From IMG/VR virus record IMGVR_UViG_2778261450_000003, positions 1 through 38,191 of that record: a stretch of 38,191 bases of DNA. The stretch is one strand, 5' to 3'. A program made the position numbers and the translations under genes. Source of the DNA: a virus. Taxonomy: Duplodnaviria > Heunggongvirae > Uroviricota > Caudoviricetes. This document shows positions 11,374 to 15,554 of this stretch, one piece after another; position 1 is the first letter of the stretch, and each line of letters starts with the position of its first letter. The notes below the pieces were generated by a model. It made no database searches and had not been told where the DNA came from. It saw nothing but the letters and a program-made list of their open reading frames with translations.

Positions 11374-11716
11374 CAAGAGATACCGTAAAAGTCAGGGGTT
11401 CAAAAAAATCTTCGGTGTGGGCGCTAATCAGCAGGCGACCAGAAAGCGGGGTTTCTTCTGTCACACTGACCGTGCCAGGTGTGATGCGCTCATCATCTTC
11501 AATCAGCAGTGTCATCTGCATCATGATGTCGGCACGAAGCGTCGGGCTTTTTTCAGCCAGCAGGCGCGTTGCCAGTCCGCTCTCAATGATGGCGTGCTGG
11601 CAGTCCTGGGCAATACTTTCCCTGTTGTTGCATAACACCGGCTCACTGGCGCTGTTCAGCGTGAGATTGCGACCGGTGATGAGCAAATCAATGTAAAGCG
11701 GTTTATCAGTATGCAT
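11366..11716 (-). CDS. baseplate wedge protein (gpW/gp25-like, positional)
   Basis: 116 aa from the internal ATG at 11716 (the track's longer ORF would overlap the tape measure by ~150 nt); sits between tape measure and J-like gene. Confidence 0.4.
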   Translation of the reverse strand: MHTDKPLYIDLLITGRNLTLNSASEPVLCNNRESIAQDCQHAIIESGLATRLLAEKSPTLRADIMMQMTLLIEDDERITPGTVSVTEETPLSGRLLISAHTEDFFEPLTFTVSLDD

Positions 11717-13802
11717 GCAGCTCCATCCACTCGTTAAGACGGGCAGGGGATGGATCCTGCACATTGACGTTAACCACACGACGGGAGTTGTCGATGGTGG
11801 TCTGGTTTTCGCTGTTGTTCTGCATCTCTGCCGCAATGCCGCCCGGTCCCGCACTGATGGCTTTACCGCCGGTTAATACGGAGCCTTCGCCACTTCCTGT
11901 GCTTTCCGGTGTGTCGATATTGACGCCGGGGATCATGTTGAGCTTGCCTACAATCCAGCCCCATGAATCACTGAAGGACTGTTTCACCAGTTCCCAGAGG
12001 TTACTGAAAATGTTCAGGATGCCGCCGGCGATATCCTTCAGGGCGTCCAGAGGTGAATGCGTGGAAAAATAGTTAACCAGTGCATTCCAGCCGTCCTGAA
12101 TTGTGTTCCATGCATTGCTGAACCATGCCCCCATACTGCCGACCATTTCAGCCACCCACTGAAAGGCGGCGGTATCCATCAGCGCGGCTTTAATCTCATC
12201 CCAGCGGGTGATCAGGAAATAAATGCCCACGCCCAGCGCAGCCAGTGCCAGGATGATTAATGTGATGGGGCTGAAAAGTAACTGTGTTGCAATTGCAGCT
12301 CCGCTGGTGACTGCGGTGTAGATTTTCATTGCTATGCCGGCGGCACCCAGCGCAACAGAATAAAGCCAGAGTCCGGCGCGCTGTAATTTCAGCAGCGCCA
12401 GCTGAATTTTTGCTTTGACGTTGTATGTTCCCATAGCAATGGACATGGCCAGATACAGCGCCCTGACCGTTCGGGCAACTACAGTGAACGCCCACATGGT
12501 AGCCGTCAGTGTGCGTTTCAGCAGAATGAGGATCTTCAGCGGCGCAACGGCTGCCAGCCAGACCAGCCGCAGTCCTGTCCAGACAAACTTCGCCACACCC
12601 ACCATAATGTTGACAACGGCACCCACTGCGGCAATGCCCAGCAGGGCGGCAGACAGTAAACCAATGGCCCGTGTGATATTGGGATACAGACGTAGCCAGG
12701 TAACAAAGGATTTACCGCCTTCGTTGCTTTTCTGGATAAACGGGTACAGAACAGGCAGCAACTGCGTGCCGATTTCGATGCGAATGCCGTTAATAATTGC
12801 GGCGGCCTGTTCCCATGGATCAGCCATGGCCTGCGCCATTTCGACAGCCTTATCCATACCTTTGATATTGCCCAGCGTGGCGATATTCTTTTCAAGTCCG
12901 CCAATGTCCGCATTGAGTAATTTAATCATGGCCACAGCTTCATCGGAGCCAAAGGCGCTTTTCAGCAAATCGGAATCAGCCACTTTTGACAGATCACCAA
13001 ATTTACCCCTGATAAGTTTCATGATCTCGACAACACTTTTCATCGTGCCGTCTTTATTCACGAAATTAAGCCCCAGCTTTTTCTGGGCGCTGCCTACTGC
13101 GGCAAGAAATGCCTTGTATTTTGTCCCGGCTTCGCTGCCACTCATGGTTGCCTGCAGTTGTCCCAGCACGGCGAACTGTTCAGCCGCATCAATACCGGCC
13201 GCTTTTGCACTGGCACCCAGCGTGGTGAACGCTGCTGACATGTTATCGCCGGTTGTTTTAAACATTTGCACGGCGGTGGCGGTTTGCCCGGCGACCTGCT
13301 CCACCCATTTGCTTTTTCCCATGGCATCAGCCTGGTCTTTAAAGATGCCGTACATGGTGCCCATGTAGGCGGTAATGGTCTGGCTGCTGGATTTGGTTGC
13401 TGCTGCCACCGTTGCTGATGCGGTGGTGAAGCGGGACAGCTCATCGTCAGTTAACCCGGCAATGGCTGACTGGATGTCGTAAGAAGCACGCACAAAATCC
13501 TGCGCAGCCCCGCCGTATTCCATAGTGAAATCAACGGCGGCGCGGCTGAGTTTACGCAATCCGGACTCTGCGACGCCCAGTGATTTCACCTCACCGAGCG
13601 CCCTGTCCATTTCAATGGCTGGCATCAGTGCCCCCTGAATGGCTGCTCCCACTCCCCAGAGCGCAGCGCCTCCGGTAGCAATGTCCCGAAAGGCTCCCCG
13701 ACTTGTTGCAGCAAATCCCTGAACCTGTCGCCCGGCTGCACGCAACGGCCTTGTCAGGCGGTCTGTCAGTTCAAGAAGTAATTCAAGGCGCTGTTGTGAC
13801 AT
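11706..13802 (-). CDS. tail tape measure protein
   Basis: 698-aa ORF, Ala/Gly-rich with several hydrophobic segments, directly downstream of the chaperone frameshift pair; largest gene in the tail module. Confidence 0.8.
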   Translation of the reverse strand: MSQQRLELLLELTDRLTRPLRAAGRQVQGFAATSRGAFRDIATGGAALWGVGAAIQGALMPAIEMDRALGEVKSLGVAESGLRKLSRAAVDFTMEYGGAAQDFVRASYDIQSAIAGLTDDELSRFTTASATVAAATKSSSQTITAYMGTMYGIFKDQADAMGKSKWVEQVAGQTATAVQMFKTTGDNMSAAFTTLGASAKAAGIDAAEQFAVLGQLQATMSGSEAGTKYKAFLAAVGSAQKKLGLNFVNKDGTMKSVVEIMKLIRGKFGDLSKVADSDLLKSAFGSDEAVAMIKLLNADIGGLEKNIATLGNIKGMDKAVEMAQAMADPWEQAAAIINGIRIEIGTQLLPVLYPFIQKSNEGGKSFVTWLRLYPNITRAIGLLSAALLGIAAVGAVVNIMVGVAKFVWTGLRLVWLAAVAPLKILILLKRTLTATMWAFTVVARTVRALYLAMSIAMGTYNVKAKIQLALLKLQRAGLWLYSVALGAAGIAMKIYTAVTSGAAIATQLLFSPITLIILALAALGVGIYFLITRWDEIKAALMDTAAFQWVAEMVGSMGAWFSNAWNTIQDGWNALVNYFSTHSPLDALKDIAGGILNIFSNLWELVKQSFSDSWGWIVGKLNMIPGVNIDTPESTGSGEGSVLTGGKAISAGPGGIAAEMQNNSENQTTIDNSRRVVNVNVQDPSPARLNEWMELHAY

Positions 13803-14283
13803 TACGATCCCTTAAAAGCACGGATAATGCCGTTATTGACGGCGATGCTCATATTTTCCCAGTAGTGGTTATCCAGCCAGACGGCGGCAGCCAGTGACTG
13901 CGGCGAGTCATCCTCGCCGGGCAGCCAGTGGCGGCGCAGAATCAGCATCCGGGTAAGGTCATTGCGATCAATGGCCCCCAGATGGCTTTTTATTTTTTTA
14001 CGGTGATTTCCACTTCCGGCACAAACTCGTTATTCACGGCTGTTGCCAGGCTGGCCGGCATTCCTGGTTTTTCCAGCAACTGGTTCAGCAGATCGCGGTG
14101 CTCTTTAATCACGATACGGCGCAGGTAGTTTTTCAGCGGCGCGATTTTGTTATCCGGCATGAAGTCGTTCTGCAGGTCGTTGTAGGCTTTTACGGTCGGG
14201 ATAAACGTCAGTTCATGCTCGCCGACCTGTAAAGTGATGGTGTTCTCTGCGGTAGTCTGGGTGTTTTTATCGTTCATCATCAT
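13802..14283 (-). CDS. tail assembly chaperone -1 frameshift fusion product (E+E'-like)
   Basis: A -1 slip on the A7 run gives a 62-codon stop-free extension (IKSHLGAIDRNDLTRMLILRRHWLPGEDDSPQSLAAAVWLDNHYWENMSIAVNNGIIRAFKGS) whose TAA overlaps the tape-measure ATG (TAATG). Confidence 0.55.
13990..14283 (-). CDS. tail assembly chaperone (P2 gpE / lambda gpG analogue)
   Basis: 97-aa ORF between lysis genes and tape measure, ending ...VKK-stop on an A7 run. Confidence 0.6.
   Translation of the reverse strand: MMMNDKNTQTTAENTITLQVGEHELTFIPTVKAYNDLQNDFMPDNKIAPLKNYLRRIVIKEHRDLLNQLLEKPGMPASLATAVNNEFVPEVEITVKK
13993..13999 (-). other. candidate -1 programmed ribosomal frameshift slippery site (A AAA AAA)
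   Basis: Heptanucleotide A-run at the end of the chaperone ORF; the downstream -1 frame is open as far as the tape-measure start. Confidence 0.5.
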
Positions 14284-14347
14284 TTCCTTTTAAAGTCAAG
14301 AATAAGAGGGCTTAATAAGCCTGCAGGAAGGCTTATTAAGCGTAAAA

Positions 14348-14689
14348 TCAGCGCACGCCGTCGTGCTCAAGGCTGAAATGATTGCCATCCGGGCGGTTTT
14401 TAAAACGACCGCCCCATGCGCCACCAAGGGATTCCCAGTACTCGCCCAGCTCGCGGTAGGCCTCTGTGCGGGTCTGATATTCACCGTTAATAAACAGATT
14501 AAAATCCACGGCCAGCCGCTGGCAGTGCAGGCTGTTGGCAATGCCGGCTCCCTTTTGTGCGTTGAGTTTTGCCTGTTCTGGCGTGCGGTACGCCTCACCG
14601 AACGTCAGGCCATAACCGCGCTGATGGGCAAACTGGATGAGTTTTCCGATCATGACGGTAAATTGTTGTTGCTTATCGGAGAGTTTCAT
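14348..14689 (-). CDS. endolysin, peptidase M15-like (D-Ala-D-Ala carboxypeptidase/VanY-type fold)
   Basis: 113-aa ORF with AAGGAG RBS; motifs SLHCQRLAVD and DGNHFSLEH resemble M15 metal-binding H-x6-D and H-x-H signatures; adjacent to a holin-like gene. Confidence 0.6.
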   Translation of the reverse strand: MKLSDKQQQFTVMIGKLIQFAHQRGYGLTFGEAYRTPEQAKLNAQKGAGIANSLHCQRLAVDFNLFINGEYQTRTEAYRELGEYWESLGGAWGGRFKNRPDGNHFSLEHDGVR

Positions 14690-14793
14690 TTTTGCTCCTT
14701 ATGAGGTTGCTGAGGTTTGCGCAGCCAGTACCACAGTGCCCGGATAATTTTCCAGGCAATGGCGGCAGCTTTTTGTTCCCTGCGGGACAGCAT
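14686..14793 (-). CDS. small basic protein (35 aa) between holin and endolysin
   Basis: ORF MLSRREQKAAAIAWKIIRALWYWLRKPQQPHKEQK with AGAGGAG RBS; its TGA overlaps the endolysin ATG (ATGA); below the ORF-track cutoff. Confidence 0.35.
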   Translation of the reverse strand: MLSRREQKAAAIAWKIIRALWYWLRKPQQPHKEQK

Positions 14794-14798
14794 TGCTG

Positions 14799-15095
14799 TT
14801 ACTCCTCTTTGTTCTCTTTCTCGCCCAGCTTCCGGCGCATATGACGCAGGAAGATTTCAACAATCTGGTAACCGGCAACGCCCATTGCGGTGCCTGCGCC
14901 GGCAATGGCCAGTGGGTCAAGGTTCGGGTAGCGAACCAGCAGGGCAGCGGCAGAAACACCCAGCGCGCTCCCCAGCAGGGTTCGGCCCACAAACAACCGC
15001 AACGTAATCGGCTCTGCGCCAGCCAGCACCCGACTTGCGGCAGCGATTCCGCCCAGAATGCCCAGGGTGATAATGGTGCGCTCATGCTCCTGCAT
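14799..15095 (-). CDS. holin-like membrane protein
   Basis: 98-aa ORF with GGGGTGA RBS, three predicted hydrophobic helices and a highly charged C-terminus (RRKLGEKENKEE); next to the M15-type endolysin. Confidence 0.5.
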   Translation of the reverse strand: MQEHERTIITLGILGGIAAASRVLAGAEPITLRLFVGRTLLGSALGVSAAALLVRYPNLDPLAIAGAGTAMGVAGYQIVEIFLRHMRRKLGEKENKEE

Positions 15096-15098
15096 GGT

Positions 15099-15554
15099 TC
15101 ACCCCATCAGTCCGCGCACGTCGTTCTCTGAGAGAACGGGCACGCCGTTGATACGCACAAAGTCAGGGCTTGCCACCACGTACTTGATTTTGTGCGTGGT
15201 CAGATCTGCGCTCTCGGTGTCAATGCTTAACAGGCCGGAAAGCATCAGCTCACAACCGAAGGCTTCAACGCGGATTTCTTCGGTGCCCGTATTGGCGTAA
15301 AACACAAAATCCATTGGCGGCAGGTCACGCCACGATCCCGCCTGAGCAGCCACTTCCCCGAGCTGGTTAAAGCTGCGGGTACTCATTTCGATTTCACCTT
15401 CGGCACTGACAGGACCACGCAGTTTGCCGTCAGGGATGCCACGGGTTTTGGCAACGGCGCTTTCATCGCTGATGTCCAGTGAGATGCTTTTCACATGGAT
15501 ATCCGTTCCACCGATAAAAGTGTCAAACGCCATGCCATTAATGCGGGTCGTCAT
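15099..15554 (-). CDS. tail tube protein
   Basis: 151-aa ORF whose ATG overlaps the sheath stop (ATGA); size and position typical of contractile-tail tube proteins. Confidence 0.6.
   Translation of the reverse strand: MTTRINGMAFDTFIGGTDIHVKSISLDISDESAVAKTRGIPDGKLRGPVSAEGEIEMSTRSFNQLGEVAAQAGSWRDLPPMDFVFYANTGTEEIRVEAFGCELMLSGLLSIDTESADLTTHKIKYVVASPDFVRINGVPVLSENDVRGLMG

Follow-up and report, generated by a model that had tools for sequence, protein, structure and literature searches.

The DNA analysed here, a viral stretch of 38,191 nucleotides that is called the window at its full length, contains a tail module with genes for the sheath, tube, holin, endolysin, chaperone and tape measure. The minus-strand order is tube, holin, M15 endolysin, chaperone, a chaperone extension and tape measure. 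The tail tube gene (15099..15554, minus strand), a member of the HP1 Orf24 family, is recognized by Pfam PF10772 (E 1e-50), and a cassette of holin (PF04550) and M15 peptidase (PF13539) genes separates it from the chaperone, as it does in HP1. The tail tape measure gene (11706..13802, minus strand), encoding 698 aa, is identified by Pfam PF10145 (E 7.5e-29) as well as by PGAP, and its product is the presumed client of the chaperone. Between the tube and tape measure genes, immediately upstream of the latter, the chaperone and its extension are found in overlapping frames. All features of this locus lie on the minus strand, which the sequence-only reading of the same DNA had left unstated.

The chaperone gene and its −1 frame extension

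The tail assembly chaperone ORF occupies 13990..14283 in the 0 frame, as given by the list of open reading frames and by Pfam, where PF10963 (Phage_TAC_10) matches residues 16-97 (E 6e-26, 90.8 bits) over its full 82-position model and above its gathering threshold of 25.7 bits. Counted from the first of three ATGs (14283), the protein has 97 aa; from the third (14277), where PGAP starts it, it has 95 aa, and the spacing of this ATG to an AAGGAA Shine-Dalgarno sequence is better than that of the first. The 3′ end of the ORF reads ATC ACC GTA AAA AAA TAA. Its run of seven A’s (13999..13993) begins at the third base of the Val codon, so that it is read in the 0 frame as A AAA AAA. This is a canonical X XXY YYZ heptamer (13993..13999) and the proposed site of a −1 slip of tRNA-Lys. 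Directly 3′ of the heptamer stands the 0-frame stop TAA (13990..13992), which may contribute as a “shifty stop”.

After a −1 slip the first codon would be ATA, and the frame stays free of stops for 63 sense codons (13805..13993; IKSHLG...AFKGS), whose translation is IKSHLGAIDRNDLTRMLILRRHWLPGEDDSPQSLAAAVWLDNHYWENMSIAVNNGIIRAFKGS. This feature is supported by the open frame, gap-free alignments, pN/pS and a switch in column entropy. The extension ends at a TAA (13802..13804) whose last A is the A of the tape measure ATG (TAATG), the stop at 13804..13802 and the start at 13802..13800 having one base in common. The predicted fusion of chaperone and extension has 160 aa (158 aa from ATG 14277), with the junction peptide ...ITVKKIKSHLGAID.... 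The sequence-only reading had described a chaperone ORF ending on A7, a stop-free −1 frame and an overlap of the TAA with the tape measure start, all of which the sequence bears out; its count of 62 codons has to be raised to 63. The arrangement itself, with A7 at the chaperone end, an open −1 frame and TAATG, is thus confirmed as real.

Within the fusion, residues 116-159 (13808..13939, minus strand) match Pfam PF21830 (DUF6890) across the full 44-position model, with E 5e-23 and 81.1 bits for the whole fusion and E 8e-24 and 83.6 bits for the extension alone (hmmscan), against a gathering threshold of 23.6 bits. No Pfam match beyond PF10963 and PF21830 was obtained at E <= 0.01 for the fusion or E <= 1 for the extension. 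The PHROG to which the extension belongs, 7050, is labelled “unknown function”. We propose DUF6890 as the equivalent of the lambda T domain and of P2 E′; this tube-recruiting role is assigned by position and analogy only, with the tube protein as the putative binding partner. AlphaFold2 on the 160-aa fusion with a 17-row alignment gave an unusable model (mean pLDDT 39, pTM 0.25), and a profile search against PDB sequences returned one marginal match, 3fgx “RBSTP2171” (E 0.037).

Existing annotation treats the locus differently. A 100% identical prophage is present in E. coli A36, where PGAP names the ORF “putative phage tail assembly chaperone” and starts a separate 48-aa “DUF6890 family protein” at an internal ATG (13946..13948, minus strand), which is probably not a genuine start. 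RefSeq/PGAP and several GenBank records likewise place two separate genes here, and a slippage join is absent from every GenBank relative examined. It had been anticipated that the locus would otherwise be annotated as a short ORF and an unexplained gap, and this is largely how it stands: a 95-aa chaperone and a detached 48-aa protein in PGAP, with no join between them.

Conservation and coding constraint in two frames

Within the window alone, the combination of A7 and an open frame is not remarkable and does not exceed chance. Runs of A7 number 19, compared with 12.7 +/- 4.7 expected, and of the positions in neighbouring genes, 9.7% are followed by an open −1 frame of at least 63 codons. The significance of the site comes from homology (PF21830, E 5e-23) and from conservation in relatives. 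These were assembled as 123 loci with both parts, which reduce to 80 distinct junctions, all from HP1-like Peduoviridae of at least nine host genera; the loci were drawn from IMG/VR contigs, from Edwardsiella and E. albertii genomes, and from the genomes of phages HP1, K139, F108, phiO18P, phi3, SI7, ESSI2, YenM_324, yong1, PY3 and SMHB1. Their hosts range from Haemophilus to Pseudomonas.

DUF6890-like sequence in the −1 frame of the chaperone, together with an in-phase A AAA AAN heptamer, is present at 123 of 123 loci. A lack of conservation of the extension frame in related phages had been named, together with an undetectable fusion peptide, as what would speak against the sequence-only reading, and the frame proved conserved throughout. 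The six leading A’s are invariant in 80/80 junctions, even where a change would be synonymous, at the third bases of the Val/Leu and first Lys codons; they are followed by C in 58/80 junctions and by G in 2/80. For 19 relatives the fusion can be aligned gap-free through the junction, at identities to the window fusion down to 34%. Among 15 annotated relatives, the stop of the extension lies anywhere from 4 nt inside the tape measure gene to 27 nt ahead of its start.

Coding constraint changes frame at the heptamer. Upstream of it, column entropy peaks at the 0-frame wobble position (1.54, compared with 0.94 and 0.62), and downstream it peaks at the −1-frame wobble position (1.48, compared with 0.81 and 0.73). 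Over the first 30 extension codons, pN/pS lies between 0.19 and 0.70 in the −1 frame and exceeds 1.5 in the others, which supports purifying selection on the −1 extension at the sequence level. An open −1 frame that arose by chance and yields no expressed product would account for the ordinary frequency of A7 and for the fact that about 10% of neighbouring −1 positions are open for 63 codons or more. It can practically be dismissed, as the Pfam match at E 5e-23, the purifying selection and the recurrence of the arrangement at 123/123 loci in effect refute it.

The PGAP annotation embodies another possibility, namely two independent genes, with a 95-aa chaperone and a 48-aa DUF6890 protein initiated separately at ATG 13948, and no recoding. 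In its favour, the ATG is present in the window, and PGAP and several GenBank records annotate the locus in this way. Such a stand-alone product would begin MLILRR and would be without IKSHLGAIDRNDLTR. No Shine-Dalgarno sequence is visible upstream of ATG 13948, however, and the Met is not conserved: in 60 of the 80 distinct junctions, extension codons 1 to 30 include no ATG. Constraint in the −1 frame moreover reaches into the 15 codons between the heptamer and ATG 13948, which hold a conserved A-I-x-x-N motif, and in eight relatives (HP1, YenM_324, K139, P05B, PY3, PfPro, SMHB1 and Vibrio phage 1.202.O) nothing at all is annotated at the extension. We therefore regard separate initiation as very improbable.

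None of the 80 junctions has an ATG, GTG or TTG in the −1 frame between the upstream stop and the slip site, and in 18/80 this frame becomes open no more than 3 codons ahead of the codon read after the slip. In most relatives, then, the extension is without an initiation codon of its own, in line with the frameshift interpretation offered earlier. On the sequence evidence, the best reading is that the extension is synthesized solely as the C-terminal part of the chaperone fusion. Among 151 representative clusters, matches are to the chaperone only or to DUF6890 only; none is a natural in-frame fusion over the full length, as would be expected if both products are needed.

Proposed frameshift and its possible signals

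These observations are very probably explained by programmed −1 ribosomal frameshifting: the locus belongs to an HP1-like (Peduoviridae) prophage of E. coli, and its tail assembly chaperone gene would yield, besides the short protein, a fusion of 158-160 aa. The sequence-only reading had called the site a programmed −1 frameshift in the tail chaperone, with which the location, the in-phase heptamer, the conserved extension and the periodicity switch all agree. Most ribosomes would make the 95-97-aa chaperone and stop at the TAA abutting the heptamer, while a minority would slip back one base on A AAA AAA, read ATA and 62 further −1 codons, and complete a 158-160-aa fusion with a C-terminal DUF6890 domain that ends at the tape measure start. 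By analogy with lambda gpG/gpGT and P2 gpE/gpE+E′, the common N-terminal part would coat the tape measure protein, and the extension may recruit the tail tube protein of the HP1 Orf24 family. The proportion of short and long product would follow from the frequency of slipping. What the sequences show is the anatomy of the site, its conservation, the constraint on both frames and the missing signals for separate initiation; a ribosomal slip, its efficiency, the binding targets of the two domains and the need of tail assembly for both products are inferred. One point against the proposal is that, as known from dnaX studies, A AAA AAA shifts less readily in E. coli than A AAA AAG does.

The same fusion would result if RNA polymerase added one A on the A7 tract, the A8 message then encoding it by standard translation. 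The window indeed has a homopolymer of seven A’s, an A8 message yields exactly the predicted fusion, and A8 occurs in the DNA of three public assemblies, where it encodes the exact 158-aa fusion; the A tract is thus prone to indels at some level, although in ERR13763688 and ERR13669336 the A8 may be either a true allele or a homopolymer error. Tracts of six A’s, however, are too short for appreciable polymerase slippage, and six is all that is present before C in 58/80 relatives and before G in 2/80. The run also keeps an invariant register to the 0 frame, a property that matters to ribosomes and not to polymerase. Transcriptional slippage is accordingly very improbable.

A variant within the ribosomal explanation is that only one tRNA, the P-site tRNA-Lys on the final AAA codon, moves back by a base during the slow decoding of the stop in the A site, with release factor competition setting the ratio; the predicted protein is the same as for a tandem slip. 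The stop adjoins the heptamer in 121/123 loci, and the two exceptions, both Pseudomonas phages, have 7 more codons and carry A AAA AAG, the most slippery bacterial heptamer. This pattern speaks for such a shifty stop. The full X XXY YYZ motif of six A’s and N is nevertheless invariant, though a P-site-only slip needs just four A’s, and the adjacent stop may merely mark the chaperone end. We hold this variant to be rather unlikely, and a programmed −1 slip on the whole heptamer remains the preferred reading.

Elements that might stimulate frameshifting were sought around the heptamer. In the window, an RNA stem-loop is predicted at 13944..13987 (minus strand), 5 nt after the heptamer; it is a possible frameshift stimulator for which no family-wide conservation could be shown. 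A 93-nt fold of the window sequence has −38.6 kcal/mol (z −3.4), and the 52-nt downstream segment has −19.5 kcal/mol (z −2.9). Across 29 diverse junctions, RNAalifold predicted no consensus structure. When downstream segments of the family were folded, their z-scores were not significantly different from those of an upstream control (p = 0.10). An 8-bp stem that recurs in several lineages was specified by hand; across the family it is paired in 56% of cases, and its covariation is modest. Nothing in Rfam matched 13700..14400 at E <= 1. A conserved wobble-position G 12 nt upstream, which creates GGA(A/G), was considered as a Shine-Dalgarno-like stimulator and left unsupported, since CTG/GTG codon preference accounts for the conserved G equally well. 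Neither a conserved stimulatory RNA structure nor a Shine-Dalgarno-like element could be demonstrated across relatives.

As a tentative idea, the lysine heptamer and the abutting stop may together form the conserved signal, and DUF6890 may be a “T-like” domain that recruits the tube, the third of its kind and without sequence relationship to lambda T or P2 E′. The only lineage without an adjacent stop has switched to A AAA AAG, the strongest bacterial heptamer. If the composite signal is true, termination competition, not RNA structure, would set the short/long chaperone ratio in a myovirus clade. The heptamers of the family, which have A, C or G at Z and the adjacent stop present or absent, constitute a natural set in which the tuning of frameshift efficiency can be studied.

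Relation to HP1, lambda, P2 and dnaX

The true homologues of the locus are HP1 orf26 and the unannotated −1 frame before orf27, together with their counterparts in HP2, F108, K139, phiO18P, ESSI-2, YenM_324, SI7 and phi3. In this group, tblastn aligns 89-96% of the fusion, spread over two frames, with 35-52% identity. The group has the order tube, lysis genes, chaperone and tape measure, the A AAA AAN heptamer and a DUF6890-like extension of 60-64 codons, all as in the window. Most relatives, however, carry A AAA AAC where the window has A AAA AAA, the Pseudomonas members carry A AAA AAG with 7 further 0-frame codons, and spanin genes found between endolysin and chaperone in the relatives are missing in the window.

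The records of the HP1 group annotate a frameshift in no case: a frameshifted tail chaperone is a textbook phage trick that annotation pipelines have missed in this group. RefSeq/PGAP, the GenBank records examined, PHROGs (1214, 7050) and Pfam treat the extension as a separate small protein, as a protein of unknown function or as nothing, and these annotations call for correction. DUF6890 is here assigned as a frameshift-encoded C-terminal extension of PF10963 chaperones across HP1-like Peduoviridae, on the strength of the comparative sequence data. The assignment would add one more unrelated protein pair to those with the G/GT expression strategy, and it leaves the current understanding of phage tail assembly unchanged. 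Our literature search, outside which the surveys of Xu 2004 and Christie 2002 fell, found nothing specific to a frameshift in the HP1-like clade.

The chaperone gene of phage lambda, like that of the window, lies between the major tail and tape measure genes, and the expression logic proposed for the window is that of lambda gpG/gpGT. Lambda is a siphovirus with the slip site G GGA AAG, and its T domain is larger than the 63-aa extension of the window. The lambda G/T Pfam families were matched neither by the whole fusion (E <= 0.01) nor by the extension alone (E <= 1). In lambda gpG/gpGT, a low-frequency −1 shift close to the 3′ end of the chaperone gene appends a domain with which the major tail protein is bound (Levin 1993; Xu, Hendrix and Duda 2004, 2013, 2014; reviewed in PMC5009743), and −1 frameshifting between tube and tape measure genes is widely conserved in long-tailed phages (PMC5009743).

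In phage P2, also of the Peduoviridae, a −1 slip at TTTTTTG (T TTT TTG) yields E with 91 aa and E+E′ with 142 aa (PMC3091744, citing Christie 2002). The P2 pair is likewise immediately upstream of the tape measure gene, with the extension end overlapping the tape measure start, and its sizes of 91/142 aa compare with 95-97/158-160 aa in the window. In P2, in contrast, slipping takes place on a run of T’s that lies 6 codons ahead of the E stop, whereas the A run of the window abuts the stop, and the P2 tube gene FII is adjacent, whereas a lysis cassette separates tube and chaperone in the window. P2 E+E′ combines PF10109 (Phage_TAC_7) with PF06528 (Phage_P2_GpE), and the window fusion combines PF10963 with PF21830; hmmscan found the P2 families in P2 E+E′ and not in the window fusion. 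An hhalign comparison of a 13-member fusion profile with P2 E+E′ gave a probability of 0.2%. The sequence-only reading had invoked the conserved arrangement of lambda G/GT and P2 E/E′ and proposed an alignment of the extension to E′ or T-domain sequences. The arrangement is indeed analogous, but homology does not hold, given the different Pfam families and the hhalign result, and the comparison by Pfam and by hhalign against P2 E+E′ revealed no sequence relationship for the extension.

The E. coli dnaX site (A AAA AAG) resembles that of the window in its lysine-codon heptamer and shift-prone tRNA-Lys, and the Pseudomonas members of the family carry the identical heptamer. It depends on an upstream Shine-Dalgarno-like element and a strong downstream hairpin, whereas no conserved stimulator was found in the window family. 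The dnaX shift leads to a truncated product, whereas the shift proposed for the window would extend the protein.

The chaperone gene, its heptamer and the extension

All genes concerned lie on the minus strand. The putative tail assembly chaperone ORF (14283..13990, −) opens with three consecutive ATGs, the first of which gives a product of 97 aa; PGAP starts at the third (14277), whose spacing from an AAGGAA Shine-Dalgarno sequence is better and which gives 95 aa. The ORF ends ...GAA ATC ACC GTA AAA AAA TAA, and because the first A of its A7 run (13999..13993, −) is base 3 of the Val codon, the run is read in the 0 frame as A AAA AAA, a canonical X XXY YYZ slippery heptamer directly abutted by the stop. 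The −1 frame, which at the junction reads CGT AAA AAA ATA AAA AGC ..., is open for 63 sense codons past the heptamer (IKSHLGAIDRNDLTRMLILRRHWLPGEDDSPQSLAAAVWLDNHYWENMSIAVNNGIIRAFKGS) and terminates at a TAA (13804..13802, −) that shares its final A with the start of the tape-measure ATG (TAATG). A sequence-only reading had claimed a programmed −1 frameshift here (13802-14283); the A7 run with its phase and the TAATG overlap are borne out, and the description is right overall once the strand is given as minus and its 62 stop-free codons are corrected to 63.

The Pfam families recognised are PF10963 (Phage_TAC_10; E 6e-26) in the 0-frame product and PF21830 (DUF6890, "unknown function"; E 5e-23) in the −1 extension. 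The following gene encodes a PF10145 tape-measure protein, and the genes upstream encode an M15 endolysin, a holin, an HP1 Orf24-family tube protein and a DUF2586 sheath. Among named phages, the closest belong to the HP1-like branch of the Peduoviridae. An E. coli A36 prophage is 100% identical to the window over this stretch, and near-identical copies are present in 42 of 5,426 complete E. coli genomes. PGAP annotates the A36 prophage with a chaperone and a separate 48-aa "DUF6890 family protein" from an internal ATG (13948), and with no ribosomal slippage. Within the window alone, the pattern is not more than chance would give, as A7 runs number 19 (12.7 ± 4.7 expected) and the −1 frame is open for at least 63 codons at 9.7% of positions in neighbouring genes; support for the predicted feature comes from homology and comparison.

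Conservation and coding signal across relatives

A tblastn search of GenBank phages with the predicted fusion of chaperone and extension matched 76 records, 64 of which cover at least 80% of it as two pieces in two frames. Fourteen diverse records were inspected (HP1, K139, F108, phiO18P, P05B, phi3, PfPro, SI7, ESSI2_ev239, YenM_324, yong1, 1.202.O, PY3 and SMHB1). In all of them, the chaperone ends at, or 7 codons past, an in-phase A AAA AAN, and the −1 frame stays open 55-64 codons beyond the chaperone stop (a 60-64-codon extension from the heptamer) and codes for a DUF6890-like product; its end falls between 4 nt past the tape-measure start and 27 nt short of it. The +1 frame mostly closes within a few codons, and none of the 14 records carries an annotated slippage join.

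Addition of IMG/VR and genome loci brought the set to 124 loci, 123 with both parts, representing 80 distinct junctions. Conservation of the extension frame in related phages, on which the earlier claim had been made to depend, was found throughout: the extension is in the −1 frame, and the heptamer is an in-phase A AAA AAN, in 123/123 loci. Among the distinct junctions the six A's never vary, not even where the third base of the Val/Leu codon or of the first Lys codon could change synonymously; 58 junctions have C as the Z base, 20 have A and 2 have G. Fusions built by a slip at the heptamer align without gaps across the junction. A stop codon adjoins the heptamer in 121 of 123 loci, the exceptions being two Pseudomonas phages with A AAA AAG. 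These phages, phi3 and UFJF_PfPro (loci L039 and L043, ~1755-1785), are the only ones whose 0 frame runs 7 codons past the heptamer and the only ones with this dnaX-type heptamer; four representative proteins (P0039, P0058, P0067 and P0173) likewise run on past ...VKK, suggesting that heptamer strength is traded off against having a stop next to it. In K139, orf30 (L034 1216-1794, NC_003313) is annotated as a 192-aa chaperone with an N-terminal extension overlapping the preceding lysis gene, and the alignment places the real start (MTKPVF...) ~105 codons further in.

Upstream of the heptamer, column entropy peaks at the wobble phase of the 0 frame (1.54 vs 0.94 and 0.62), and downstream at that of the −1 frame (1.48 vs 0.81 and 0.73), the switch starting directly past the heptamer and well upstream of PGAP's ATG. 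Against five relatives, the −1 frame has a pN/pS of 0.19-0.70 over the opening 30 codons of the extension, compared with >1.5 for either of the other frames; the pattern is reversed in the last 20 chaperone codons. No ATG, GTG or TTG lies in the −1 frame between the upstream stop and the slip site in any of the 80 junctions, and in 18 of them this frame begins just three codons ahead of the one read after the slip. An ATG is absent from the first 30 extension codons in 60/80, and no Shine-Dalgarno sequence precedes ATG 13948, so that, together with the coding signal, independent initiation is not a conserved route to the DUF6890 domain.

Probable mode of slippage, candidate stimulators and the search for natural fusions

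A programmed −1 ribosomal frameshift in the chaperone gene, giving a short chaperone and a long fusion, is very probably the explanation. In its most economical form, the tRNA pair, Lys-Lys in the window, would slip −1 in tandem on A AAA AAN and yield ...EITVKK-IKSHLG... at low frequency. The near-universal stop next to the heptamer speaks for a P-site-only slip with that stop in the A site, which predicts the same protein and, as a variant within the ribosomal explanation rather than an addition to it, is rather improbable. This protein would likewise result from transcriptional slippage on the A tract, which is very unlikely because the tract is only six A's long in most relatives and keeps an invariant phase.

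A predicted stem-loop (13987..13944, −) begins 5 nt past the heptamer in the window, where the 52-nt downstream segment folds at −19.5 kcal/mol (z −2.9; z −3.4 in a 93-nt context). Across the family no consensus structure was found downstream of the heptamer, folding z-scores do not differ from the upstream control, and there is no Rfam match; by these measures no stimulatory element is established. Phage tail frameshift sites seldom have a structure downstream, and that of P2 has none (PMC3091744). A G at the wobble position 12 nt upstream of the heptamer, found in 81% of distinct junctions, gives GGA(A/G) 9-10 nt before it (window ~14011-14007), a spacing resembling that of the dnaX Shine-Dalgarno-like stimulator; CTG/GTG codon preference could explain this G equally well.

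When 1.84 billion representative proteins were scanned in full with HMMER, 151 matched, and these are chaperone-only (~85-100 aa) or DUF6890-only (~45-62 aa) except for tandem-duplicated chaperones and fragments. None of the 151 is a genuine full-length in-frame fusion, which fits a putative need for both short and long product. Two PF10963-like domains stand in tandem in one ORF in P0033 (182 aa, ending ...VLKK plus 5 residues), P0057 (188 aa, ...VSVKK) and P0142 (211 aa, ...TAKK plus 15 residues). A 96-aa protein of Salmonella enterica serovar Montevideo (P0005) was rejected as a natural full-length fusion and looks like a decayed prophage allele: an in-frame deletion, which apparently arose by recombination between two LRR-coding stretches, joins chaperone residues 1-55 (...NYLRR) to a DUF6890 part (HWLPGEDD...).

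The exact 158-aa predicted fusion (P0178) comes, in the protein collection, only from three Logan assemblies. In both contigs inspected (L126 and L127, 3001-3477; ERR13763688 and ERR13669336), A8 replaces the A7 of window 13993-13999 and joins chaperone and DUF6890 in frame to exactly this product. L126 has a second homopolymer indel, T7 to T8, truncating a DUF2590 gene, and IMG/VR contigs have A8 at the slip site in 0 cases and A7 in 21. The A8 assemblies reflect sequencing error in a homopolymer or else a rare slipped-strand mutant with the long product alone, and count neither for nor against recoding.

Known systems, annotation and neighbouring genes

The chaperone frameshift strategy is textbook knowledge (Levin 1993; Christie 2002; Xu 2004). 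Both lambda products, gpG and gpGT, bind the tape-measure protein through their G part, and gpGT adds a T domain, encoded in the −1 frame, that attaches to the major tail protein; tail assembly depends critically on the ~30:1 ratio, and the shift is 2-3 times as frequent in P2-type phages (PMC5009743). P2 shifts at TTTTTTG to make a 91-aa E and a 142-aa E+E' (PMC3091744; P2 record). The window agrees in product sizes, in gene position and in the way the end of the extension meets the tape-measure start, and by analogy its chaperone and extension may function as in lambda and P2. P2 E+E' matches PF10109 and PF06528, whereas the window fusion matches only PF10963 and PF21830, and profile-profile comparison with P2 E+E' gives a probability of 0.2%. 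The G/GT and E/E' arrangement put forward from sequence alone thus holds in how the element works and not in sequence membership, which lies with neither; its true family, judged by homology, is the HP1 orf26 group. A PDB sequence search gave a marginal match at best, and an AlphaFold model of the fusion was set aside for its poor quality.

PHROGs 1214 and 7050, the two halves, are both entered as "unknown function", and a relative described in a 2024 genome paper is still given a chaperone plus a separate hypothetical protein. The literature searched, outside which lie two key surveys that may list HP1, makes no mention of this clade's frameshift or of DUF6890. The value of the analysis is mainly corrective, in that DUF6890 is placed as the predicted frameshift extension of PF10963 chaperones; the relatives also offer a natural series of heptamers and stops for recoding studies.

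A perfect 13-bp inverted repeat (14310-14341, −; GCTTAATAAGCC...GGCTTATTAAGC) lies in the interval that separates the M15 endolysin stop (14348) from the chaperone start; it is followed by a pyrimidine-rich tail and scored terminator-like. Spanin genes occupy this interval in HP1, ESSI2, YenM_324 and SI7 and are absent from the window, where the spacing is only 64 nt; the repeat region may be a deletion scar, or an attenuator before the chaperone and tape-measure genes. In the window, 109 nt (14690-14798, −) separate the holin gene (15095..14799) from the endolysin gene (14689..14348), two genes that overlap in ESSI2_ev239 and YenM_324; Logan gene calls place a 35-aa ORF in this gap (L126 2485-2592).
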